Positions 25,951 through 58,618 of a stretch of 64,000 nucleotides of DNA are shown in pieces. Made by a program: the position numbers and the translations under genes. The notes below the pieces were generated by a model. It worked only from the letters and a program-made list of their open reading frames with translations, was not told the DNA's origin and ran no database searches. Source of the stretch: an uncultured bacterium (lineage in GTDB: Bacteria; Verrucomicrobiota; Kiritimatiellia; RFP12; UBA1067). Location: NCBI GenBank assembly GCA_902801025.1, contig CADCGZ010000001.1:11091-75090 (forward strand). The letters run 5' to 3'. Within the stretch, counting starts at the first letter, position 1, and every line of letters begins with the position of its first letter.

Positions 25951-26000
25951 GACCCTAAAGGACTCTAAAAGACTCTAAAAGACACTAATTGACCCTACTG
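25951..26000. repeat. 5 x 10-bp phased tandem words GACNCTAANN in the ackA-pta spacer
   Basis: GACCCTAAAG GACTCTAAAA GACTCTAAAA GACACTAATT GACCCTACTG. The same word family occurs inside kdsD, inside uvrA and in the hairpin after the secretin gene. Confidence 0.9.
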
Positions 26001-26002
26001 CT

Positions 26003-27040
26003 ATGAACGCAATCAAGAACATCATTGAAAAGGCCTCGAAGCTGAACGGAACGGTCGTTCTCCCCGAGGGCATGGACCCCCGCGTCATAACCGCCGCGTG
26101 CGCTTGCGTCGACCGCAAGATCGCGACGCCCGTCGTTCTCGGCACTCCCGCGGAAATCGCCGACGCAGAGGCGAAGGCCGGTCTCAAGCTCGCAGACCGC
26201 GGCATCAAGACGATTGACTATACGCAAGGCGACGCGGAACTCGAAGCCGCGTATCTCGAAGCGTGGAACGCAAAGGAGTCGAAGAAGCCGGCCGAGAAGC
26301 AGAAGATCATTGACCTCGCCGCAGCGCAGAAGACGCTCCGCACGAAGCGCATATACTTCGGCGGCATGATGGTTAAGCTTGGTCGCGTCAACGGTCTTGT
26401 CGCGGGTTCGATCGCCTCGACTGGCGACATGCTTCGCGCGGCGTTCCACACGCTTGGCACGCAGAAGGGCGTCAAGACGGCGTCGAGCTGCTTCATCCTC
26501 GACCTCAAGACCCCGACGGCGTCGGGCGACGAAGTGCTCGCGTTCGGCGACTGCGCGGTTATTCCCGATCCGACGGCCGAACAGCTCGTCGACATCGGCC
26601 TTGCTACGGCGCAGACCTACCGCGACCTCACCGGCAAGGAGCCGCGCGTCGCGTACCTCTCGTTCTCCACAAAGGGCTCCGCGGCGGGTCCGCTCGTCGA
26701 GAAGGTCCAGAAGGCCGTCGAGCTCGCAAAGCCCCGCTTCGAGGAAGCCGGCATCAAGATGGATGGCGAGCTGCAGTTCGATGCGGCGATCGTCCCTGCG
26801 ACCGGCAAGCAGAAGAACCCGAACGGCGCCGTGCAGGGCGACGCGAACGTCTTCATTTTCCCTGACCTCAACGCAGGCAACATCGGCTACAAGATCGCGC
26901 AGAGAATCGGTGGCGCCGACGCCATCGGGCCGAACCTCCAGGGACTCGCCAAGGCGATGAACGACCTCTCGCGCGGCTGCTCCGCCGAGGACATCGTTGG
27001 AACCATCTGTGTAACGCTGCTTCAGTCGACGACAAAGTGA
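26003..27040 (+). CDS. pta: phosphate acetyltransferase (short form)
   Basis: 345 aa. VVLPEGMDPRVI, the DCAVIPDP region and FIFPDLNAGNIGYKIAQR are typical Pta/PTA_PTB motifs. Located next to ackA. Confidence 0.95.
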   Translation: MNAIKNIIEKASKLNGTVVLPEGMDPRVITAACACVDRKIATPVVLGTPAEIADAEAKAGLKLADRGIKTIDYTQGDAELEAAYLEAWNAKESKKPAEKQKIIDLAAAQKTLRTKRIYFGGMMVKLGRVNGLVAGSIASTGDMLRAAFHTLGTQKGVKTASSCFILDLKTPTASGDEVLAFGDCAVIPDPTAEQLVDIGLATAQTYRDLTGKEPRVAYLSFSTKGSAAGPLVEKVQKAVELAKPRFEEAGIKMDGELQFDAAIVPATGKQKNPNGAVQGDANVFIFPDLNAGNIGYKIAQRIGGADAIGPNLQGLAKAMNDLSRGCSAEDIVGTICVTLLQSTTK

Positions 27041-28143
27041 CAGACAACAAGATGATCGAGCGCGCGAAGCAAGTCTTCGCAGTTGAGATCGAGGGTCTCG
27101 AGAAGACCCGCGACTCTCTCGGTGCATCTTTTGTCAAGGCGGTCCGGCTCATTCTCGACACTGTCGCGGACGGCGGCATTGTCGTCGTCTCCGGCGTCGG
27201 CAAGAACCTCCACATCGCCGAGAAGATGAGCGCCATCTTCTCTTCGACTGGCACGCGTTCGATCGTCCTCAATCCCGTGCAGGCGATGCATGGCGACCTC
27301 GGCATGGTCTCCGCGAAGGACGTCCTTATCGCGCTTAGCTTCTCCGGCGAGTCGGCCGAGGTCAACAACTTGATTCCCGCGATCCGCCGTCACGGGCTCA
27401 AGGTCATTTCGATGACTGGCCGCCCCGACTCGACGCTTGCGCAGATGAGCGATATCCACATCGAGATTCCGTGCGGCAAGGAGGCGTGTCCGTTCGGCAT
27501 GGCGCCGACGAACTCGACGACGGCGACGATGGCGATGGGCGATGCGCTCGCGATGGTGATGATCGACGCGCAGAAGTTCCCTGTCGAGGACTACGCGATG
27601 AACCATCCGGCGGGCGCGATTGGCAGGGCGCTTGTCATGAAGGTGACGGATGTCATGCGCTCGGGCGAGCGGCTTGCGAAGGTCGGCCCCGAGGCGACCG
27701 TTCTCGATGCGCTGATGGCGATGACGAAGGCGCAGGGCGGCAGTGCCATTGTCGTGGACGCGAGCGGCAAGCTGCTCGGCATCTTCACCGACGGTGACTT
27801 CCGCCGCATCATGAGCGAGAGGGGCAAGTTTGGGTCAAATAGCGTCGGTGTAGAGTCTGGTAGTGTCGGCAAGACCCTGAGCGACTCTAATTCGCCCCTA
27901 AGCGACGCTAAAGGACCCTATTCGACCCTAAGCGACGCTAAAGGACCCTATTCGACCCTAAACGACCCTATCTCCCTCTACATGACCAAGTCTCCGCTCT
28001 TCGTCTACGACGACGCGTATGCTGCGGAGCTCCTCAAGATCTTCGAGAGAAAGCGCATCGACGACCTGCCGGTGTGCGACAAGTCTGGCCGGGTGGTCGG
28101 ACTCGTGGACATCCAAGACCTGCCAAAGATGAAAGTATTGTGA
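27037..28143 (+). CDS. kdsD: KpsF/GutQ-family arabinose-5-phosphate isomerase (SIS + CBS pair) carrying a ~50-codon repeat-derived insertion
   Basis: SIS motifs VVVSGVGKNLHIAEKMSAIFSSTG and ALSFSGES, followed by a CBS pair. GTG 27037 overlaps the pta stop (GTGA); an alternative ATG lies at 27052. The protein is ~40-50 aa longer than typical KdsD, and the excess maps to 27828-27978. Confidence 0.9.
   Translation: MTDNKMIERAKQVFAVEIEGLEKTRDSLGASFVKAVRLILDTVADGGIVVVSGVGKNLHIAEKMSAIFSSTGTRSIVLNPVQAMHGDLGMVSAKDVLIALSFSGESAEVNNLIPAIRRHGLKVISMTGRPDSTLAQMSDIHIEIPCGKEACPFGMAPTNSTTATMAMGDALAMVMIDAQKFPVEDYAMNHPAGAIGRALVMKVTDVMRSGERLAKVGPEATVLDALMAMTKAQGGSAIVVDASGKLLGIFTDGDFRRIMSERGKFGSNSVGVESGSVGKTLSDSNSPLSDAKGPYSTLSDAKGPYSTLNDPISLYMTKSPLFVYDDAYAAELLKIFERKRIDDLPVCDKSGRVVGLVDIQDLPKMKVL
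27828..27978 (+). repeat. in-frame foldback word array inside kdsD: ~4 inverted words (nTAGnGTC) then ~11 forward 10-bp words (GACnCTAn), including a perfect 30-bp x2 duplication (27901-27960)
   Basis: Read directly from the sequence. It encodes KFGSNSVGVESGSVGKTLSDSNSPLSDAKGPYSTLSDAKGPYSTLNDPISL between the two CBS motifs. Confidence 0.9.
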
Positions 28144-28151
28144 TTAAAATA

Positions 28152-28296
28152 AGCCACAAAGAACAGGAGAAAACAGGAGAATGGGAAAGAAAGAACGTAA
28201 TATCACCTATTTGGTGATGAGGGATATTGAAATCGGTGCTGTTGAAATGTCAAATTGCCGAGACAATACCTCCTGTATCTCCTGTTCTTTGTGGCT
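28152..28296. repeat. foldback element: 28-29-bp imperfect inverted repeat (19 bp perfect AGCCACAAAGAACAGGAGA / TCTCCTGTTCTTTGTGGCT) around an AT-rich 88-bp core
   Basis: Left arm 28152-28180 contains AACAGGAGA twice. Right arm 28269-28296 contains the complement TCTCCTGT/CCTCCTGT twice. The core holds a sub-hairpin TCACC..GGTGA. Located between kdsD and the pilus-like cluster. Confidence 0.85.
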
Positions 28297-28362
28297 AAAC
28301 GATGGCGAGACCTGGGGCAACAGAGGAATTTAAGTTAAACCAAATAGGAAAGGAACAACAAA

Positions 28363-29065: not shown

Positions 29066-29118
29066 GGGGTAACGGGGAACGGGAACCGGGTAACGGGGAA
29101 CGGGGAACGGGTAACGGG
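29066..29118 (+). repeat. array of 8 G-tracts (GGGGTAAC/GGGGAAC/GGGTAAC, ~7-bp period): canonical G-quadruplex motif on the + strand
   Basis: G3-4 runs start at 29066, 29074, 29081, 29088, 29095, 29102, 29109 and 29116, separated by 3-4 nt. Located between the stop at 29064 and the pilM ATG at 29133. Confidence 0.85.
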
Positions 29119-29132
29119 AACGGAAACTTTCT

Positions 29133-32939: not shown

Positions 32940-35900
32940 ATGCAAAACATTAGGAGCATGTTCGATATGACGAACCTCAGGACATACGTCGCGCTGACGG
33001 CGACCATCGCTTTCATCGCGCTCGGCCAGAGCATGAACGCGCAGGACGATCTTGACGATCTGCTTGCCGACCTCGAAGGCGAGGCCCCCGCAGCGACACC
33101 AGCCGCGCCTGCACCAGCCGCCGAGGAACCGGCACCGGCGCCCGCAGCTGAAGAGCCTGCGCCAGCGGCCGAGGAACCGGCACCGGCGCCCGCAGCTGAA
33201 GAGCCTGCTGCCGAGGAGCCCGCACCGGCGCCAGCCGCCGAGGAGCCCGCGCCTGCTGCCGAAGAACCGGCACCAGCACCTGCGGCTGAAGAGCCCGCTG
33301 CTGAGGAGCCCGCACCTGCTGCTGAGGAGCCGGCGGCCGAGGAGCCTGCACCTGCAGCTGAAGAGCCCGCACCTGCTGCCGAAGAGCCGGCGGCCGAGGA
33401 GCCTGCACCTGCAGCTGAAGAGCCCGCGGCTGAGGAGCCCGCTGCCGAGGAGCCTGCACCCGCGCCAGCGGCTGAAGAGCCCGCTGCCGAGGAGCCCGCG
33501 CCCGCTGCCGAAGAGCCCGCGCCCGCGCCTGTGGCTGAGGAACCTGCTGCCGAGGAGCCTGCAGCTGAGGAACCTAAGGCTGATGACAAGAAGATTGATG
33601 ATACGCTTAGTCTTCTCGACGAACTCGAGGCCGAGGAGCCCGTCGCAACCGATCAGATCGGGGAGGCGGGCGTCTCGCCCGCGCCGGCGGCCAAAGCCGA
33701 CGAACCGCTTCCAGAGCCCGTCGCTGCGACTGAAGCCGTCGAACCGGCTTCTGCTGCCGAGTCGGAAGAATCGGCCGTAAAGCAGCGGCTTCAGAACAGG
33801 AAAGACGGCGGTCTCATCGGCGAGATCCTGACGGTTGAAAAACTGCGTCGCGAGGCGATGGACACCCAGGCGATGCGCGAGATTTCGGAGGCCCGCGCTG
33901 CGATGACCAGTGGCGAGTATGCCGAAGCCGTCCGTCACTATGGCATTGCCGCTAAGCTCCTGAACGACAGTGAGAAGTCCAAGATCTTCAAGGCCGAGTG
34001 CACTGAAGGCATTGCCGAAGGGCTTTACAGGGCCGCGCTCGAGGAAGAGCGCACCGGTCGCCGCGCGCGTGCGATAAAGTACATGGAGAAGGCCGTCGAC
34101 CTTCGCCACCCGAAGGCCCGCCGCCAGCTTGAGGCCTGGCTTTCCACTGTAGACCCCGATGCCCTCAAGACCGATGTCTCCGAGATTTCGCATCGTCGCA
34201 ACGATGCCGACTACAAGGCCCGTCGCGAAATCGAGCGCCGCCACCTGAAGCGCGCCAGTCAGTTGCTTGCCCAGCGCGAGATCGACCGCGCGCTCGACGA
34301 GTGCGAGCTTGTCCTCGTGAAGGACCCCTACAACCAGGAGGCCCTTCGCCTCAGGGACTCCATCGTCCGGAAGAGCGACGTCATTCTCAAGAAGGAGCGC
34401 GAAGTCGCCCGCGAGAAGTGGATAGCCGACGTCGACAAGGCGTGGCGTCCGAACTACGCCACCGACGCCAAGGACCGCGACGACAAGAAGGGTGCCACCA
34501 TAAAGGCCAAGCCCGACCCCAACAACAAGGAGCGCACGATCGAGCAGACGATCATCCAACGCATGAAGGAGATGCGTCTCCCGGCGATTTCGTTCAAGCC
34601 GCCGGCGACGATCATCGACGCGGTCGAGTATTTCCGCGGCGCTTCGAAGGACTTCGACCGTCCCGAGATCCCGCTTGAGCAGCGCGGCTTCAACTTCGTC
34701 CTCAAGACGCCCGAGGCCGTTCGCATGAAAACGGCCGCAGCGGCGGGCGAGGATGCTGATGACTTCTCCGACACTGGTTCCGACGAGGCGGCGGATGCCG
34801 GCGGGCCGCTTGGCGTTCCTGTCATCCCGATGATCACCGCGAGCGACATCACGTTCTACGACGCCCTCAAGCTCGTGTGCGAATCCGTCGAGTACAAGTT
34901 CACCGTGCAGGGTCCGATCGTCATGGTCATGCACAAGGACATGTCGGTCGAGGAACTCGTCACGCGCTCCTTCCCGGTTCTCTCGTCCTTCACCGAGAAG
35001 ATGGAAAGCGCGAAGGGCGACATCACGACGATGCGCTCGAGCAATAGCGGCTTCGGCGGCGCATCGCGCAAGAACGACGACGGCGAGGAAAACGAAGAGC
35101 GCGACTGGAAGGAGTTCTTCTCGCTCCTCGGCGTCAAGTGGCCCGAGGGCAGCTCGATCTTCTACGTGAAGACCGTCGGCCGGCTCTTCGTAAAGAACAC
35201 CCAGGAGAACCTCGCCGAGTTCGAGAACGTCCTCGCCCAGCTCAACCAGCAGGTCACGCTCGTCGAGATCGAGACGAGGTTCATCGAGGTCTGCCAGGAC
35301 GACCTGACCTCTCTCGGTTTCGAATGGATTCTCAACAGCGACTATTCACTTGGCCTCAACAAGCACCTCGGTAGGGCGCTTGGCATTCGTGGCGGCGCGT
35401 TCAGCGGTCTCGGCGGTGAAATTGGCACTGGCAGTTCCTCCACTTCGACTACTGGCGGCGATACGACGACTATCACGACGCAGGCCGGCGGGATTATCAC
35501 TTCCCAGGGTACGGGCACTGCGGTTTCCGGGGGCAGCAGCTCTGGCACTGCGTCTGCTTTGTCGCAAGACGCTTCTTGGGTGCGTAGCTCTGGTGCAAAA
35601 AGGAACATTGGCATCAATTCGGTTGACGGTGAGACTTATGCAAGCGGGCATCGATATCTCTCGGATGTCGGGAATCATATTTCCGGTGAATCGAAGTCGA
35701 CAAATGATCGCTTTATGCGGCTGAATGCCTTCCTTGGCAGTGCCGACCTCTCGATGATCCTGCACATGCTTTCGCAGCGCAGCGACACCGATCTCCTCTC
35801 TGCTCCGAAGGTGCTGACGCGTCCGGGCGAAGAGGCCGTCATGAAGGTCGTGACGGAGTACATCTACCCGACCGACTACGACGTGCAGCTCCAGTCGAGC

Positions 35901-36611
35901 TCTTCCGGCAGTTCGGGCAATTCGGGCGGCAGCCAGTCGGCCATTCTCGCCGTCGTTGAGCCCCAGAGCTTCACGATGCGCGAAGTGGGCGTCATACTCC
36001 AGGTCACCCCGACCCTGACTGACGACGGCAACGTCGTTGACCTCGAGCTCAACACCCAGGTCGTCGACGAGCCGACATGGAAGAACTACGGCATGAGGAT
36101 CCCGTTCACGGGCAATGCCTCGGCCGGCAATCTCACGATCGGAATAGGCGACGGGCCGTTTGCGGAACAGGGCTACACGCCGTCTGCCGCTGTAATGGAG
36201 CGCATTGTCACGCGCTATTGGGAGGCGGTCGCCAACATGTTCGAGAACCTCTCAGGCGGCAACCAGAACATTACCTACTACGATGCACCGATGGAGCAGC
36301 CGTTCTTCCACGTCCGGTCCGTCGATTCGAAGATAAGCGTGTATCCTGGGGCGACGATCGTCATGGGCGGCCTTATCACCGAGGCCCGCAAGGCGATGGA
36401 CGACAAGATTCCGTTCCTTGGCGACATTCCGTTCCTCGGACGCTTCTTCCGCAGCCATTCCGAGCAGACCTCGAAGCGCAACCTCCTCATCTTCGTCACG
36501 ACCCGCATCGTCGACGGACGTGGTCGTGAGATGCACAACGATGGTTTTGAGATCTCCGATCAGTCCGCTGGTGCCGACGCGAAGGAGGCGCCCGAGATGC
36601 CGGCTAATTAA
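32940..36611 (+). CDS. secretin (GspD/PilQ family, Amuc_1098-like) with a long acidic Ala/Pro/Glu N-terminal spacer and TPR-like region
   Basis: 1223 aa. Signal peptide ending SMNA/QDD. C-terminal secretin core: DLLSAPKVLTRPGEEA, VGVILQVTPTLTDDGNV, IVMGGLI, IPFLGDIPFLGRFFRS and NLLIFVTTRIVD. Confidence 0.9.
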   Translation: MQNIRSMFDMTNLRTYVALTATIAFIALGQSMNAQDDLDDLLADLEGEAPAATPAAPAPAAEEPAPAPAAEEPAPAAEEPAPAPAAEEPAAEEPAPAPAAEEPAPAAEEPAPAPAAEEPAAEEPAPAAEEPAAEEPAPAAEEPAPAAEEPAAEEPAPAAEEPAAEEPAAEEPAPAPAAEEPAAEEPAPAAEEPAPAPVAEEPAAEEPAAEEPKADDKKIDDTLSLLDELEAEEPVATDQIGEAGVSPAPAAKADEPLPEPVAATEAVEPASAAESEESAVKQRLQNRKDGGLIGEILTVEKLRREAMDTQAMREISEARAAMTSGEYAEAVRHYGIAAKLLNDSEKSKIFKAECTEGIAEGLYRAALEEERTGRRARAIKYMEKAVDLRHPKARRQLEAWLSTVDPDALKTDVSEISHRRNDADYKARREIERRHLKRASQLLAQREIDRALDECELVLVKDPYNQEALRLRDSIVRKSDVILKKEREVAREKWIADVDKAWRPNYATDAKDRDDKKGATIKAKPDPNNKERTIEQTIIQRMKEMRLPAISFKPPATIIDAVEYFRGASKDFDRPEIPLEQRGFNFVLKTPEAVRMKTAAAAGEDADDFSDTGSDEAADAGGPLGVPVIPMITASDITFYDALKLVCESVEYKFTVQGPIVMVMHKDMSVEELVTRSFPVLSSFTEKMESAKGDITTMRSSNSGFGGASRKNDDGEENEERDWKEFFSLLGVKWPEGSSIFYVKTVGRLFVKNTQENLAEFENVLAQLNQQVTLVEIETRFIEVCQDDLTSLGFEWILNSDYSLGLNKHLGRALGIRGGAFSGLGGEIGTGSSSTSTTGGDTTTITTQAGGIITSQGTGTAVSGGSSSGTASALSQDASWVRSSGAKRNIGINSVDGETYASGHRYLSDVGNHISGESKSTNDRFMRLNAFLGSADLSMILHMLSQRSDTDLLSAPKVLTRPGEEAVMKVVTEYIYPTDYDVQLQSSSSGSSGNSGGSQSAILAVVEPQSFTMREVGVILQVTPTLTDDGNVVDLELNTQVVDEPTWKNYGMRIPFTGNASAGNLTIGIGDGPFAEQGYTPSAAVMERIVTRYWEAVANMFENLSGGNQNITYYDAPMEQPFFHVRSVDSKISVYPGATIVMGGLITEARKAMDDKIPFLGDIPFLGRFFRSHSEQTSKRNLLIFVTTRIVDGRGREMHNDGFEISDQSAGADAKEAPEMPAN
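33075..33575 (+). repeat. coding low-complexity tandem region (AEEPAPAP/AAEEPA units, ~165 aa)
   Basis: Imperfect repeats of GCYGARGARCCNGCNCCNGC-type units read directly from the sequence. The antisense ORF 32858-33589 over this region is an artefact. Confidence 0.9.
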
Positions 36612-37328: not shown

Positions 37329-37442
37329 TTTTTAACGCAGAGTAGCGGAGTAGCAGAGTAGCAGAGTTGTTTTGGGCCGCGCAAGCGCGGGGTCTGGGGT
37401 GCAACCCCAGCATCAACATCCTCTGCGTCTCTGCGTTAAAAA
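37329..37442. repeat. foldback element / candidate structured RNA between coaE and rho
   Basis: Perfect 14-bp terminal IR: TTTTTAACGCAGAG (37329-37342) and CTCTGCGTTAAAAA (37429-37442). Left arm has 4 x 8-bp CAGAG words (37335-37366). Right arm has 2 x CTCTGCGT (37421-37436). The core is TTTTGGG plus hairpin CCGCGCAAGCGCGG plus hairpin CTGGGGTGCAACCCCAG (37370-37410). Confidence 0.85.
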
Positions 37443-42000: not shown

Positions 42001-44572
42001 TTGGGAGCCGTTTTCCACCAACATTGTTGCGGATGGCATTCATAAGCTTCAATGGGAAATAACGGAATCGCATTCCGGCACCGACGACGAAGGCATAATG
42101 CTTGACCATGTGACATGGGAGCCTGCGGGTGGTGCAGCCGGCATTGCCGCAGTGGAAATCCCCGTTGCGGTCCCCGGTCTTGTCTACGACGGCACTAAAA
42201 AGATCGGCGTTGACGAGAATGCGGCCTATACGCTTGTCGGTAATGTCGCGACAAACGCGGACGGATATCTCGCGACTGCGACGCTGAACAACAAGGCCGC
42301 AAGCGTCTGGGCAGACGGCACGACGGACGACAGGGAGATCCCGTGGCGAATCGCTACCAAGGTCATAGATCTTAGCGGCGTTGCGTTTGCGGATGCATCG
42401 TGGAAGTTCGACGGCAAATCCAAGAGTATCAATGCCTCCGGCGTGCCCGCTGGTGTAGAGGTGACCTACGATGGCAATAATCGAACAGAGGTTGGCGAAT
42501 ACACGGTGACAGCGTGGTTCAAGAGCACTTCCACTGGAAATCTGCTGACGAACATGACGGCTACGCTCACGATAGAGGCGCTGAGCGTCGGCGAGCCATC
42601 AGCCGTTGCGGGACTCGTCTACGACGGCACGGCGAAGACTGGCGTTGTCGAAAGTGTCGGTTACACGCTTGCCGAGAACGTTGCGACGGCCGCAGGCGAT
42701 TATGTCGCGACGGCAACGCTTGACGCCGGATATGTCTGGTCCGACAACACGACTGGACCGAAGGAGATTTCGTGGTCGATTGCGCGCGCTACATACGACA
42801 TGGGCGACGTGTTGTTTGAAGACGGGACGTTTGAGTTCGACGGCACGAATCTGTATCTTGCCGTGGAGGGAGATCTTCCCGATGGCGTTGACGTCTACTA
42901 CCTGTACAACGGGAAGTCCGGCGTCGGCTCTTATACGGTCATTGCCAGGTTCACGGCATCCGATGCCGTCAACTACGAGCCGATTCCAGATCTTGCGGCC
43001 ACGCTGACTATCGTGCTCCCTCCGACGAAGATTGAGGTGCCGACGGCCGTGTCGGGGCTTGTCTACGACGGTGCGGCGCAGATCGGCGTCCTTGAAGGCG
43101 TTGGATACGCCCTTGCCGGGAACGTCGAGACGAACGCGGGCTCGCATGCCGCTACCGCGACGCTGGAGGACGGGTATGTCTGGGCTGACGGCACGACGGT
43201 TGCGCAGACAATCCACTGGTCTATTGCCAAGGCAACATACGACATGAGCGGGGTGTCGTTCGCGAGCAAGACGTTTGAGGCCGATGGCACGAAAAAATCT
43301 ATTGCCATTACGGGAACGCTTCCTTCTGGCGTGAAGGTGTCTTATGTTGGCAACGGCCAGACCGAGCCCGGGACATACACGGTGACGGCGAAATTCACGG
43401 GTGACGCGAACAACTACAATTCGATTTCAGATAAAAAGGCCACACTGACCATAACGAAGAAGTCTGATCCTGTCCCGCCAGGCCCAGGCCCTGGGCCAGA
43501 ACCCGATCCTGATCCAGTGGACGAGACGCCCGATCTGTATCCGAGCGGAGTCGCGGTGCTTGGCGCATTCACGGCCGAGAAGGCAGAGACCTACAACGGC
43601 TGGCTTAAGGATGATGCCGAGCGAGTCGTCGCATTGCTGACAGTGAAGACGACAGCGGCAAAATCTGGCAAGCAGACTAAGTCGACGATCACAGTGACGC
43701 CTGTCAATGGAAAGAAGTACACAAAGAAAACGTCTTTCGATCCAGGGGGGAATCCGACCGACGAATTTGGCATCGTCTACGGCTCGCGTGGGCTCCTTGG
43801 CACATTTGGCGGTTATTCCGTCGAGGCCGGTGTAGATGTCTACAAATCCAAGATTTCCGAGGTAAAGGCCCTTGCTGCGAATATTCCAGTTGCGACGCAT
43901 ACGTTCTCCGTCGACACTGGGAACGGCATGGCGGTGTTCTCGGCCGTGATTGCCAAGACTGGCAAGACGAAAGTCCAGGGATATCTTGAAGACGGCGCAA
44001 AGATATCGGTCTACACTACCGGTGCGCTTGGGGAAGAATACTTTGCCGTCCCTGTCGTTTCGCCAAAAGCGGCGACGCGGTGTGGGTTTGTCCTCTGGTT
44101 CCCCCTTGACGGCGGTTCGCCGACACTCGCAAACTTCTACGATTCGAACTGGACGGCTTCGCTGTCTGGTGGATCATACGCCCTGGCCAACGGTGAGCAT
44201 GTCTTTGACTTCGAGGAGCCGGACTTCCGCAATTATCTCGCTTCAGTCGACGGCTTTGCCGTTGCGCCCGTTGGAGCCGTGTTTACCGTTAAGCGCGGCA
44301 AATGGGACGCCGGCAAGACGGTCGGCCGTCTCAAGGTTATCGATGGCGCACCGGCTGTCACCGGAACTTCGTCGCCGTCGAATCTGTCCGCGCTTAAGCT
44401 GACGTATACTGCGAAGTCGGGGCTTGTGAAGGGCTCGTTCAAGCTGTACTATATGGATGGCAAGCGGCTTAAGAATGACACTGTGACGGTTACGGGCGTT
44501 GTTGTCGACGGCAAGCTATTCGGAAGTGGCACAATCAAGAAGCTCGGCTCCTTTGCCGTAACGGCGGAATGA
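39086..44572 (+). CDS. large surface protein (1828 aa): ~10 Listeria-Bacteroides (InlB B / Flg_new) repeats, then YDG-containing MBG-like repeat pairs, a Pro-rich linker and a C-terminal domain
   Basis: GGAGG RBS at 39075-39079. Signal peptide [19 protein letters not shown]. Repeats of the type [24 protein letters not shown]...LYAVW. Repeated VxGLVYDGTxKxGV...ATLTI units. Linker [19 protein letters not shown]. Confidence 0.9.
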
Positions 44573-47481
44573 GCGACATCAGCATACACAACGCCAAGGT
44601 CCACAACCTCAAGGGGATAGACGTCACGATTCCCCGTGACTCGCTTACGGTCGTGACGGGGCTTTCGGGGAGCGGCAAGTCGTCGCTCGCGTTCGACACG
44701 CTCTATGCGGAAGGCCAGCGTCGCTACGTCGAGTCGCTTTCCGCGTATGCGCGGCAGTTCCTCGACAGGATGCAGAAGCCGGACGTAGAAAAGATAGAAG
44801 GGCTCTCGCCTGCGATCTCCATCGAGCAGCGAACGACGAGCGGCAACCCGCGCTCGATTGTCGCGACCGTCACCGAGATACACGACTACCTGCGAATCCT
44901 CTACGGCGCGATTGCGGTTGCGCACTGTCCGCACTGCGGCAAGCCGGTCACTAAGCAGTCGGCGGAGCAGATTGTGGAGGCGATTCTCGGGGAATGGGGA
45001 ACGGGAAACGGGGAACGGGCAGGTGGCGCAAAAATTATCATCTACGCCCCTCTCGTGAAGGGCAAGAAGGGGCGGCACGAAGAGCCGCTTGCCGCCGTCA
45101 AGCGCAACGGCTTTGCGCGCGTCAAGATCGACGGCACGATATATCCCGTCGACGAGCTTCCCGCGCTCGACAAGAAAAAGGCGCACACCATTGACGTCGT
45201 GGTTGACCGCCTCGTGATTCCGGCGGCGCCCGACGCAGCGTTCAAGACGCGCCTCACCGATTCCGTCGAACTTGCTCTCAAGACCGGCAAGGGCATAATG
45301 GAGGTGGAGAGATTGGGGAACGGGGAACGGGATATATACTCAGAACTCAACGCGTGTCCCGATTGCGGTATTTCCTTTGACGAGCTGAAGGCGCGGTCGT
45401 TCTCGTTCAACTCGCCCTTTGGTGCATGTCCGACATGCGCGGGGCTTGGGCAGCTCTACTACTTCGACGAAGATCTCGTCGTGCCCGACAAGTCGCTTCC
45501 GCTCGAGGAGGCGATACACCCGTGGCGTCGCATGGGGCAGATGAACATCCTCTATCACAAGGAGCTTCTTTCGCAAATCGCAAAGCAGAACAAGGTGAAG
45601 CTCTCGACTCCCTACGAGAAGCTGCCGGCGAAGTTCCGACACGGGCTTATGCACGGCTTCAAGGAAGACCTCGTTCTTCCGTGGCGGCGCGTCGACCGTC
45701 CGTTCGAGGGAGTCCTCGCGTCGCTTCAGCGGCGGCTCGACGAGGCGGAGGACGACGAGATGCGTGCGAAGTTCGAGGCATACCAGAGCTTCCGTACCTG
45801 CCCCGACTGCGGCGGTTCGCGGCTTAGGCCCGAGTCGCGCGCGGCGACTGTCGCCGGGAAGTCGATAGTAGAGGTAATGGCGATGCCGGTCACCGAGGCG
45901 CTCGAGTTTTTCAGCGCCATTCAAGATTATGCAAATGGCGTAGTGTCTGATAGAGGTGCGACCCTAACCGACTCTAATCGCCTCCACGGCCTCAAGGACA
46001 TCATCGCGGAGATCGTGCGGCGGCTCCAGTTCCTTCTCGACGTTGGACTAGACTATCTGACGCTCGACCGCGCCGCGTCAACTCTCTCCGGCGGCGAAAT
46101 GCAGCGCATCCGCCTCGCGACGCAAATCGGCTCTGGGCTCACGGGAGTTCTTTATGTGCTCGACGAGCCGACAATCGGCCTCCACCCGCGCGACAACGAG
46201 CGGCTTATCTCTACCCTAAAGGGGCTCCGCGACCGCGGCAACACCGTCGTCGTCGTAGAGCACGACGAAGAGATGATGAGGAACGCCGACTACATCGTCG
46301 ACCTTGGTCCCGGCGCGGGGCGTGAAGGCGGGAAGGTGATGTACCAGGGCGACTTCAAGGGGCTCCTAAAGTCTAAGTCGCTCACCGCCGACTACCTCAC
46401 GGGGAGGAAGAGGGTGGTGACGGCCGACGACCGGCAGCCGACAGTCGCAAGTCGAAAGTCGAACGGATTGTCGGGTGACGGTTGCCGACTGTCGAAAAAC
46501 TCCGCCTACCTCACCATCTCCGGCTGCACCGAGCACAACCTCAAGAACATCACCGCCCGCTTCCCCGTAGGCGCGTTCACCGTGGTGACAGGCGTCTCTG
46601 GCTCCGGCAAGTCGACGCTCGTCGACGAAACGCTAAAGAGGGCGCTTCTCCAGAAGTTCTACCACGCGAAGGCCGTCCCCGGCAAGTTCAAGAAGCTCAC
46701 TGGCTTCGAGAACTTCGACAAGATTGTGGAGATCGACCAATCGCCTATCGGCCGCACTCCGCGCTCGAACCCGGCGACGTACGTCGGCTTCTTCTCCGAG
46801 ATACGCGAGCTTTTCGCGAAGACAGAGTCGGCGCGCGCGCGCGGCTACACTGCGGGGCGCTTCTCGTTCAATGTGAAGGGCGGAAGGTGCGAGACGTGCG
46901 GCGGCGATGGCCTCCAGAAGCTCGAGATGAGCTTCCTCCCCGATGTCTACGTCACATGCGACCAGTGCGGCGGCAAGCGCTTCAACGCCGAGACTCTTGA
47001 AGTCACCTACGGCGGCAAGAACATCGCCGATGTCCTCGAGATGACGGTCGCCGAGGGGTGCGAGTTCTTCGCGAAGGTGCCGTCCCTCGCCCGCAAGCTC
47101 CAGACGCTTGTCGACGTCGGGCTTGGCTATGTCGCTCTCGGGCAGTCCGCGACGACGCTCTCAGGCGGCGAGGCACAGCGCATCAAGCTCGCGACGGAAC
47201 TTTCACGCCGCTCGACGGGCCGCACACTCTATCTTCTCGACGAACCGACGACGGGGCTCCACTTCGACGACGTGGCGAAGCTGATGAAGCTTCTCCTGCG
47301 GCTCCGCGACCAGGGGAACACGATCATCGTCATTGAGCACAACGTAGACGTGATGAGGTGCGCCGACTGGATCGTCGATCTCGGGCCCGGCGGGGGCGAT
47401 GCGGGCGGCGAGCTTGTCTGCGAAGGGCCGATTTCGGCCATTAAGGCATGCAAATCTTCCATCACTGGGCGCTTTTTGTAA
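44569..47481 (+). CDS. uvrA: excinuclease ABC subunit A
   Basis: 970 aa. [58 protein letters not shown] and [12 protein letters not shown] are present. The ATG overlaps the upstream stop (ATGA, 44569-44572). Confidence 0.96.
45938..45985 (+). repeat. in-frame copy of the GACCCTAA-family foldback element inside uvrA
   Basis: GTAGTGTCTGATAGAGGTGCGACCCTAACCGACTCTAATCGCCTCC aligns with kdsD 27850-27898 (GTAGAGTCTGGTAGTGTCGGCAAGACCCTGAGCGACTCTAATTCGCCCC). It encodes ..[18 protein letters not shown].. in a segment that I recall as longer than in E. coli UvrA. Confidence 0.8.
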
Positions 47482-47567: not shown

Positions 47568-47591
47568 GCTCTGCGGCTCTGCGCCTCTGCG
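47568..47591 (+). repeat. 3 x 8-bp CTCTGCGN tandem words in the recA leader
   Basis: CTCTGCGG CTCTGCGC CTCTGCGT then TAAG. This matches the right arm of the 37329-37442 element. No complementary left arm is present. Confidence 0.85.
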
Positions 47592-55793: not shown

Positions 55794-57607
55794 ATGGCTA
55801 CAGACTACGGTGATAAAAGCATAAAGACTCTCGATCCGGTGACGCACATCCGCCTGCGTCCCGGCATGTACGTCGGCGAACCCGGCACGGGCGCGATGTA
55901 CCATGACTGCATCTACATCCTGATGAAGGAAGTGATCGACAACGCGATCGACGCGGGCGAAGTGTCCGTGCGCGACTACGGGCGCGGCATTCCGCTTGGC
56001 AAGGTCGTCGACTGCGTCTCGCAGATGAATACCGGCGGCAAGTACGACAACGAGAACTACCAGTTCTCCGCCGGTATGAACGGCGTCGGCACGAAGGCCG
56101 TGAACGCGCTTTCCGAGTTCTTCGAGGTGCGCTCGTTCCGCGACGGCGAGTTCTCCGAGGCGTATTTCGAGGAAGGGCGACTAAAGTCCAAGAAGCGCGG
56201 CAAGCTCAAGACGAACGAGCATTCGGGAACGTACATCCGCTACAAGCCCGACCTCAAGGTTCTGAAGAAGTTCAAGGTGCGCGAGGAACACGTCCTCAGG
56301 CGCATGAAGATGTACTGCTACGTGAACGCGGGGCTGACGATAGTCCTGAACGGCCAGGAGATCTGCTCCGACCGCGGGCTTGCCGACCTCATCGCTGACG
56401 AGGCGCAGTTCGAGAAGCTCTACCAGCCGTTCCACGTGAAGACGAAGTCGCTCGAGATAATCTTCACGCACACCAACCGCTTCGGCGAGGAGTACCACAC
56501 GTTCGTGAACGGCCAGTACACGACCGACGGCGGCACGCACCTCACGGCGTTCAAGGAGGCGCTCACCAAGGCGCTCAACGACTACGACCCGAAGAAGAAG
56601 TTTGACGGCGACGACATCCGCGACGGTCTTCTCGGCGCGGTGTCGGTGAGGATCATGAACCCCGTCTTCGAGGGGCAGACGAAGATCAAGTTCGTGATGA
56701 ACGACATCAAGTCCGAGCTCGTCCAGCAGATGAAGAAGGAGATCGAGGCGGCGCTCCACCGCTCGCCCTCCGAAGCCGACAAGCTCATCTCCAAGGTCGA
56801 GGAGACGGGGAAGATACGCTCGCAGCTCAACACGATAAAGAAGCAGGCGCGCGAGAGGTCAAGCAGGCGCGCGAGAGGTCGCAGGCCGTCTCGGTGCGCG
56901 TTCCGCAGCTCAAGGACTGCAAGAACCACCTGAAGCTCGACAAGGTCGACAAGAAGACCGGGAAGGCCGAGGGCGAGGACACGATGATCTTCCTCACTGA
57001 GGGCCAGTCGGCGGGCGGCACGCTCGGCGGCGCGCGCGACGCGATGAACCAGGCGGTCTTCTTCCTGCGCGGCAAGTGCCTCAACACGTGCGGGCTCAAC
57101 AAGGACGTTCTCTACAAGAACGAGGAGTTTTTCAACCTCATCAAGACGCTCGACATCGAGGACACGCTCGAGCACCTTCGCTACGGGAAGATCATCTTCG
57201 CGACGGATGCCGATGTCGACGGACTCCACATCAGGATGCTCCTCACGACGTTCTTCATGCGCTTCTACCGCCAGCTCATCCTCGACGGGCGCGTCTTCAT
57301 CCTCGAAACGCCCCTCTTCCGCGTCAGGAACAAGAAGGAGCACTACTTCTGCTACACAGACGAGGAGCGCGAGGACGCGATAAAGAAGTGCGGGCGCGGC
57401 TGCGAGATCACGCGCTTCAAGGGACTTGGCGAGATCGACAAGGAGGACTTCAGGGGCTTCATCGGCGAGGAGATGCGCCTTACGCCCGTGACTTGCTCCG
57501 ACGACACAGACGTCGAGAAGACGATCAAGTTCTACATGGGCGCCAACACGCCCGAGCGCAAGGACTACATCATGGAGTCTCTCGTCTGCGACGCCGCCGA
57601 GTTCTGA
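55794..57607 (+). pseudogene. parE: type IIA topoisomerase subunit B (ParE/GyrB family, Bacteroidetes/PVC-type topo IV B-like) disrupted by a 20-bp tandem duplication
   Basis: The GHKL region (EVIDNAID, DYGRGIP, NTGGKYD, GMNGVGTKAVNALS) and transducer lie in frame 3 up to ~56880. Toprim (FLTEGQSAGG, ATDADVDGLHI) and the tail (RFKGLGEI) lie in frame 2 from 56894. Deleting one copy of 56841-56860 restores a single ~597-aa ORF that reads ..KKQARERSQAVSVRVPQLKDCKNH... Confidence 0.8.
56841..56880 (+). repeat. perfect 20-bp tandem duplication AAGCAGGCGCGCGAGAGGTC x2
   Basis: 56841-56860 is identical to 56861-56880. Twenty nt is +2 in reading frame, which is exactly the observed frame change. Confidence 0.97.
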
Positions 57608-58593: not shown

Positions 58594-58618
58594 GCGCAGA
58601 GGCGCAGAGAGCATAGAG
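58594..58618 (+). repeat. GCGCAGAG x2 plus a degenerate third unit directly upstream of rnc (CAGAG-orientation half element)
   Basis: GCGCAGAG GCGCAGAG AGCATAGAG. This is the reverse-complement orientation of the CTCTGCG array upstream of recA. Confidence 0.8.

Follow-up and report, generated by a model that had tools for sequence, protein, structure and literature searches.

The DNA analysed here, referred to as the window, is a 64,000-nt stretch of contig CADCGZ010000001.1 from an uncultured bacterium of the Kiritimatiellia, with a GC content of 61%, and its element of interest is an array of short repeated words that lies in frame within the gene kdsD. This gene, kdsD/kpsF, occupies positions 27037 to 28143 on the forward strand and encodes an arabinose-5-phosphate isomerase of 368 residues when read from a GTG start, or 363 residues from an ATG. 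Pfam placed an N-terminal SIS domain (2.4e-24) before a pair of CBS domains (2.4e-20), and matches in the PDB were to the arabinose-5-phosphate isomerase 2xhz (2.2e-42) and to the CBS-pair structures 3k2v, 4o9k and 3fna. By its SIS domain, its CBS pair and its similarity to solved isomerase structures, the host gene is a kdsD/kpsF.

A first-pass annotation, made from the sequence alone, had described a foldback array of about 150 bp inserted in frame between the CBS motifs, and all the positions that it gave proved correct. We found an in-frame insert of ~145 nt (27829–27972) in the CBS1/CBS2 linker that consists of four inverted and ten direct GACNCTAANN words and covers residues 264 to 312. 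The left arm (27829–27867, translated FGSNSVGVESGSV) holds the inverted words, whose TAGNGTC-type cores lie at 27830–36, 27840–46, 27851–57 and 27861–67 with spacings of 10, 11 and 10 nt. It is followed by a 5-nt centre, GGCAA (27868–27872), a part that differs between loci, and by the right arm (27873–27972, translated KTLSDSNSPLSDAKGPYSTLSDAKGPYSTLNDP), in which the cores of the direct words start at 27873, 27883 and 27894 and then every 10 nt to 27964, giving spacings of 10, 11 and then seven times 10 nt. Tandem Repeats Finder (TRF) reported the 10-nt period at 27873–27970 (9.7 copies) together with a 30-nt super-period, and a phased double-word pattern matched 17 times in the window against 0.77 expected, a number reached in none of 100 shuffled sequences. 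The two arrays are opposed, as a foldback requires, but the hairpin is imperfect, with four words facing ten and a DNA folding z-score of −2.4.

The array contains ten stop triplets, none of which is in the kdsD frame, while the other five frames are closed. The in-frame TAT codons at 27919 and 27949 and the out-of-frame TAG triplets of the inverted words at 27840, 27851 and 27861 lie exactly where they had been annotated. Since reading frame and stops are constrained in this way, it is most likely that the insert stays in the translated protein and is not removed, and the predicted tryptic peptides are FGSNSVGVESGSVGK, TLSDSNSPLSDAK, GPYSTLSDAK and GPYSTLNDPISLYMTK. An AlphaFold model of KdsD, which was of low confidence owing to a shallow alignment (mean predicted local distance difference test score, pLDDT, only 54.7) and served secondary-structure placement only, put the insert as coil (pLDDT 22–34) between helix alpha2 of CBS1 (252–261) and CBS2. 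Codon usage within the element is foreign to the host: GC content at third codon positions (GC3) is 0.54 compared with 0.83 in the surrounding genes, and CTA makes up four of the six leucine codons in the element as opposed to 5 of 250 elsewhere, which argues that the element is conserved at the DNA level and not at the peptide level.

Comparison with the best 120 KdsD relatives, all from Kiritimatiellae and 77–99% identical to the window protein, confirmed that the array is an insertion in an otherwise canonical enzyme. These proteins span 324 to 410 residues, and nearly all of the length variation falls at one site, after FTDGDFRR. The proteins of 324 residues (L003) and 328 residues (L121) have a short native linker without words and are 81–86% identical overall. 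Where arrays are present they range from one inverted and three direct words (L122) to 21 inverted and six direct words (L001), and the array of the window equals the form in L124 and L102 plus an exact 30-nt tandem duplication of three words, or ten codons (27901–27960). Positions 27901–27930 repeat as 27931–27960, and the perfect match at an offset of 30 extends to 36 nt (27896–27931 against 27926–27961). The duplication had been called recent, which is not necessarily so: the two-unit form occurs on several kdsD backbones, in some of them with one substitution between the units.

In clusters at least 90% identical we counted at least eight kdsD alleles, with segments of 29, 33, 36, 43, 53 and 60 residues and steps of +7 or +10 residues, and all of them differ by multiples of 3 nt. 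The pattern does not fit a phase-variable contingency locus, in which a simple sequence repeat acts as an on/off switch: none of the observed alleles shifts the reading frame. The exact 363-residue protein of the window was assembled on 14 contigs (NCBI and ENA), and arrays at the same site came from the independent projects ERZ27279903, ERZ922500, ERZ914863, ERZ28613569, ERZ27280109, JAFQYM01 and JAZSLQ01. As copy number differs among close strains here and in the spacer array described below, both belong to the class of variable-number tandem repeats (VNTRs). We also noted that positions 26003–27810, which take in pta and a 5' portion of kdsD, match L003 8952–10759 at 93% identity, compared with 80–84% for the flanking genes; the high-identity alignment stops just before the array, and it may be a recombination tract that ends at the repeat.

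Copies in the window and across gut Kiritimatiellae

The window holds three copies of the GACCCTA-word element, in kdsD, in uvrA and in the spacer between ackA and pta. The spacer copy is a non-coding array of five direct words on the forward strand that fills the spacer (25951–25997). It had been annotated as keeping CTAA, which is true of four of its five words. The same spacer has four words in L001 and in L121, where the first word itself provides the stop, and none in L102 and L036, whose ackA stop codon overlaps the pta start codon in the sequence ATGA. At kdsD, by comparison, the array is present in the window, L001, L102 and L036 and absent from L121 and L003, so the two sites have had independent histories. 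The spacer copy is flanked by a 5-nt direct repeat, ATGAA, in L001; the left copy of this repeat reads GTGAA in the window and GTGAC in L121.

The third copy, missed by the first-pass annotation, lies in frame within uvrA (open reading frame 44569–47481) at ~45931–45987, and consists of two inverted and two to three direct words translated as 19 residues. It is absent from the uvrA of the metagenome-assembled genome (MAG) CAMOCC01, which is 82% identical, and from P0121. This short copy folds no better than shuffled sequences (z = −1.1). A search with UvrA fragments for a near-identical empty site returned fragments only and no clean filled/empty pair; in other strains different inserts occupy the loop. 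The window's uvrA itself has four or more inserts in frame, which belong to three families. Arrays of GGGGAAC-type heptamers occur at 44989–45021 (12 residues, a 10-residue insertion relative to the CAMOCC gene) and at 45313–45331 (LGNGERD), and since three heptamers make 21 nt, these arrays also keep the frame. A different, palindromic in-frame insert with AGTCGAA-like words (CCGACAGTCG...CGACTGTCG) at ~46414–46512 occupies the exact site of a GACCCTA foldback in CAMOCC uvrA, and this loop is therefore a shared hotspot for unrelated inserts.

A scan of 185,579 reference genomes with a three-word pattern gave at least 116 loci, which were examined in 8-kb blocks. At least 38 of the loci came from the single MAG CAMOCC01, which is labelled ‘uncultured Verrucomicrobia’, and further matches listed were to Kiritimatiellae MAGs from goat, reindeer, roe deer and rumen. 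The loci from gut Kiritimatiellae contained at least 60 word arrays. All 21 two-armed copies had the same polarity, with TAGGGTC words first and GACCCTA words second. At least 22 arrays lay in long open reading frames with the same translation, (L/I/V)GS(D/N/S)(R/S)V for the left arm and DP(N/K)xTL(K/S/N) for the right. Pfam domains were found in 17 of 19 host reading frames tested, among them IspH, an FGGY kinase, UvrA (with a copy at a different site from that in the window), altronate dehydratase, a MiaB-like enzyme, MnmE, threonine synthase (ThrC), the B12 domain of MetH, DnaG, PriA, two SNF2 helicases, glycosyltransferases and a U32 peptidase. Copies in these hosts were frequently at domain boundaries, several of them between Pfam domains. 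The repeat is thus a dispersed, lineage-specific family of animal-gut Kiritimatiellae, present at many loci of one genome and in frame, with a recurrent peptide, in unrelated conserved genes; the comparison with the palindromic elements of Rickettsia that had been drawn for kdsD is borne out to this extent.

Copies at different loci are only 80–91% alike, with uncorrelated arm lengths and with unrelated centres of 0–35 nt. The 5 nt outside the terminal words are G-rich on one side and C-rich on the other at up to 30 of 42 ends, and in uvrA these outer flanks belong to the inserted DNA. Foldbacks gave DNA folding z-scores of −2.4 and −3.0 against shuffles. No Rfam family was matched, and an all-against-all search of the flanks of the fetched loci gave no further filled/empty pairs, so that neither the kdsD site nor the uvrA site yielded a near-identical pair of this kind. 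A protein search with a synthetic consensus peptide also found no matches, for which the low-complexity correction of HMMER is the likely cause. Across all arrays the spacer bases are nearly free of G on the GACCCTA strand (3–7% G), and the opposite strand therefore has TTAGGG-like GGG runs every 10 nt, which fit a G-quadruplex motif where at least four intact words are present, as in L001.

The relation of the words to the reading frame differed between coding and non-coding copies. In the non-coding arrays the spacing was 10 nt in 202 of 225 gaps. In coding arrays, 138 of 151 successive gap pairs alternated between 10 and 11 nt; the resulting period is 21 nt and keeps the words in the two phases that have no stop. 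Among 126 same-strand coding words only eight fell in the stop phase and all eight read TAT, while TAA was retained in 48 of 57 and 45 of 61 words of the other two phases. The alternation of 10 and 11 nt is the main route of stop avoidance, and the change from TAA to TAT is a minor solution. The proposal that the kdsD words were stop-avoiding variants thus holds in kind, and the TAT solution recurs across loci as (R/G)PY readings, but the two TAT words of kdsD are copies of one duplication and so amount to one independent event within the window.

The genomes are rich in other short-word arrays and word-armed foldbacks, and the same operon spacers hold different word families across relatives. 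Just 3' of kdsD (28150–28300) is a foldback with arms of AACAGGAGAA words (CCACAAAGAACAGGAGAAAACAGGAGAA ... CTCCTGTATCTCCTGTTCTTTGTGG), where relatives have other word families or nothing. The spacer before pilM (29067–29127) is filled by a GGGGAAC/GGGTAAC heptamer array; in L001 it holds five GACCCTAATT words and in L121 an AAAGTTG/CTTTAAAC foldback. Octamer words of the GCAGAGTA/CTCTGCG type occur at 37337–37436, as a foldback with a GC-rich central hairpin, at 47568–47591, directly after the uvrA stop, and at 58594–58609, and may be terminator-like elements of another word family. Two further repeats are of a different kind: a long imperfect coding tandem repeat at 33107–33583 (Ala/Pro/Glu-rich, AEEPAPAPAA-like, units of 21–93 nt) within a 1223-residue reading frame (32940–36611) at the place of the secretin gene in relatives, and a perfect 20-nt tandem duplication at 56841–56880 (AAGCAGGCGCGCGAGAGGTC x2).

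Arrays with a GACCCTA core also occur in unrelated phyla and at 29 viral loci, the latter mostly AT-rich, 11-nt, iteron-like arrays, on which ground carriage by phage was rejected. With permuted words of matched composition as controls, 19, 61 and 5 viral loci were obtained, compared with the 29 for GACCCTA. The word is therefore not special, the cross-phylum and viral matches are a matter of ascertainment, and the idea of a ‘special word’ shared across phyla was dropped. Niastella (L014/L108), Flavihumibacter (L018/L033/L068/L091/L106) and a Spirochaetes MAG (L058/L082/L088/L099/L109) have multi-locus 10–11-nt GACCCTA-core arrays of their own, which in Niastella also form a foldback, and dispersed word arrays seem to be widespread.

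Origin and maintenance of the arrays

We consider it likely that a dispersed and old element was seeded in kdsD and has since changed in length in situ by slippage, under selection for the reading frame and against stop codons. The element is a DNA repeat of non-coding type, made of a non-palindromic 10-nt word; TAGGGTC-type words come first in a row and GACCCTA-type words after them, so that the whole is a foldback. Its kdsD copy would have been seeded long ago in the CBS1–CBS2 linker, a position presumably tolerant of extra residues, and each arm would since have acquired and shed words independently of the other, with replication slippage as the likeliest cause. Only alleles with an intact frame and no stop codon would survive selection, which would in this way leave the 21-nt (10 + 11) or 30-nt steps and the TAT in place of TAA in the stop phase. 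New loci would be seeded probably by transposition or recombination of a foldback unit of ~50–60 nt. For KdsD, we infer that carrying the insert has no effect or a slight cost. The annotation had spoken of a selfish repeat ‘tolerated and tuned’ within the gene. A selfish or mobile nature is suggested by the dispersal and by the independent presence and absence at two sites, and stop avoidance is seen; ‘tuned’ is better taken as the trace of purifying selection, since no intact gene was ever seen to contain an array with in-frame stops.

Several points weigh against this explanation. No transposase or partner gene was found, although the tblastn search of 390 kb with IS200 TnpA was a weak test with an approximate query. 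Of three lineages, a single one has a perfect ATGAA direct repeat around the spacer copy, and the 80–91% likeness, unrelated centres and uncorrelated arms mean that there is no sign of recent copy-and-paste. The arrays in L001 and L007 are longer than a sequencing read and their copy numbers may be mis-assembled, and translation of the insert is read from the sequence. In the phase statistics some loci were counted in several strains, and an open frame was the criterion for calling an array ‘coding’, which partly builds in the absence of in-frame stops; that criterion does not build in the link between genes and the 21-nt period.

A possible partner was a gene for a 255-residue four-helix-bundle protein (in the regions L007 3920–5576 and L012 5867–7279), rejected as a consistent partner because it is absent from a similar cluster in L089. 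Its match to PF05635 is weak and below the Pfam cutoff, it carries a C-terminal zinc-ribbon-like CxxC...CxxC motif, and it is not a transposase. It lies between very long non-coding arrays (5+32 words and 16 words), and the long array in L007 shows a higher-order unit of ~51 nt.

Among the alternatives, it is unlikely that the in-gene copies are kept for a function at the level of DNA or RNA, as a pausing hairpin or G-rich structure, for stabilisation of the mRNA, or as a mark of domain boundaries for co-translational folding. Many operon spacers of these genomes hold word arrays or foldbacks, the foldbacks with z-scores of −2.4 and −3.0 fold better than shuffles, and REPs, the repetitive extragenic palindromes of other bacteria, have been argued to act as RNA elements (Di Nocera et al., PMC3733652). 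The frequent placement at domain boundaries would also fit, but is expected from tolerance alone. Coding copies have very unequal arms and spacers that are not complementary, the uvrA copy folds no better than its shuffles, and at these sites the insert is missing from close relatives.

We regard as somewhat less probable again that the arrays are not transposed copies but scars of break repair, left when an activity with a fixed template extended each 3' end of a double-strand break by TTAGGGTC-type words before the ends were joined. This activity would be telomerase-like, a reverse transcriptase or a primase-polymerase. If true, such healing would explain the fixed polarity, since the G-rich words run 5' to 3' towards the centre on each strand in all 21 two-armed copies; the independent arm lengths; the centres of 0–35 nt, which would be unrelated filler as at repair junctions; and the G-rich flanking 5 nt on the would-be extended strand at up to 30 of 42 ends, which would have served for priming. 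The lack of clear target-site duplications would be accounted for as well, no near-identical copies were found, and spacers almost free of G on the GACCCTA strand are in keeping with it. However, descent from one founder element would produce this polarity equally well, the arrays found at orthologous sites are evidently inherited with small stepwise changes, and the one-armed arrays and the ~51-nt unit of L007 fit slippage. We know of no such enzyme in bacteria and made no search for one here.

It is improbable that the encoded peptide is itself selected, as a flexible linker of variable length that joins CBS1 to CBS2, or lies in other host proteins, and tunes regulation. Gly, Ser, Asp and Pro abound in the peptides, which are hydrophilic and modelled as coil, and their length differs between strains, but the same DNA words fill non-coding spacers, the host proteins are unrelated and insert-free orthologues are abundant. 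Moreover, codon usage is foreign, the peptide that a word yields depends on which of two or three phases it is read in, and it is the DNA words that are conserved, the opposite of synonymous variation with conserved peptides.

An artefact of assembly, in the array itself or in its copy number, is very improbable: tandem repeats do collapse and expand easily in short-read assemblies, and the arrays of 280–376 nt in L001 and L007 are longer than typical reads, but the exact window protein stands on 14 contigs, kdsD-site arrays come from seven independent project accessions, and every allele keeps the reading frame.

Relation to known repeats

Within the preferred explanation of a dispersed element held in frame by selection, the closest comparison is to the Rickettsia palindromic elements (RPEs; Ogata et al., 2000), described in a 2024 review of MITEs, miniature transposable elements with inverted repeats, as the extreme case of in-frame palindromic inserts (PMC10969869). 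Like the element studied here, RPEs are dispersed palindromic repeats found in frame in many unrelated housekeeping genes. They are translated, and permissive sites tolerate them, as is probably true of the copies here, and about half of RPE-type copies are intragenic (PMC10969869). RPEs are fixed units of ~100–150 bp with a family consensus, in obligate intracellular alphaproteobacteria (PMC10969869); in contrast, our element, compared by description only, has a variable number of 10-nt words, varies in length between close strains, and resides in free-living gut Kiritimatiellae.

Intragenic copies are also known for the GTAG- and CGTC-tagged REPs of several species, with an excess in replication and repair genes, and the verrucomicrobium Opitutus terrae has the most intragenic GTAG copies, with REP dimers in its two uvrA genes among them (Di Nocera et al., 2013, PMC3733652). 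As a general phenomenon this is therefore already known, even in the sister lineage. Our element resembles the O. terrae repeats in its host from the Planctomycetes–Verrucomicrobia–Chlamydiae (PVC) superphylum, in its occurrence between and inside genes, and in its uvrA, dnaG and priA hosts, and as in GTAG-REPs and their hairpin-forming doublets (REPINs), opposed units build larger hairpins. A GTAG-REP is defined as a unit stem-loop with a stem of 5–13 bp and a loop of 2–20 nt, and more than 90% of members have a terminal GTAG (PMC3733652). Single and double words of our element fold with a free energy of 0 and only opposed arrays pair; the GTAG form occurs in 89 of 495 words (18%), and TAA is the commonest ending. 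Assignment to the GTAG-REPs or REPINs is ruled out by these two features; here the palindrome arises only from two opposed tandem arrays. No gene for a REP-associated tyrosine transposase (RAYT) was found in the crude tblastn search of 390 kb with the approximate IS200 TnpA query.

Other repeats share single features. Drosophila foldback (FB) transposons have long inverted arms of short tandem repeats and variable arm length, but they are eukaryotic, kilobase-scale, unrelated in sequence and host, and not reported as in-frame coding inserts. Cyanobacterial short tandemly repeated repetitive (STRR) heptamers and the VNTRs of mycobacterial interspersed repetitive units (MIRU-VNTRs) are short tandem words in operon spacers, mainly intergenic, with copy number that varies between strains. 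Here too several word families fill operon spacers, GGGGAAC heptamers among them, but opposed arrays that colonise many open reading frames in a fixed translation phase set our element apart. Palindromic amphipathic repeat coding elements (PARCELs) are intragenic tandem repeats with dyad symmetry in the DNA that apparently spread between loci and encode a 25-residue amphipathic motif in surface proteins or reading frames of unknown function (PMC2996958). Our element does not fit that description, the units here being 7 or 10 residues in conserved enzymes. We found no description in the literature of the word, or of Kiritimatiellae or Kiritimatiellota with palindromic or in-frame repeats. In-frame palindromic repeats are known, and what is new is this element, which falls outside the GTAG-REP definition.

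In-frame ‘selfish’ palindromes have been documented in few lineages, to which a free-living gut phylum is now added. The element is unusual in its modular build, a single 10-nt word arrayed in two opposed directions, and its length alleles form a natural series with many members. In MAG annotations the arrays make protein lengths larger and more variable, and they can also disrupt assemblies. The period of 10 nt outside genes and of 10/11 nt (21 nt) inside them shows the genetic code filtering a repeat, and the alleles in KdsD, UvrA, DnaG, PriA and IspH constitute a natural experiment in insertion tolerance.

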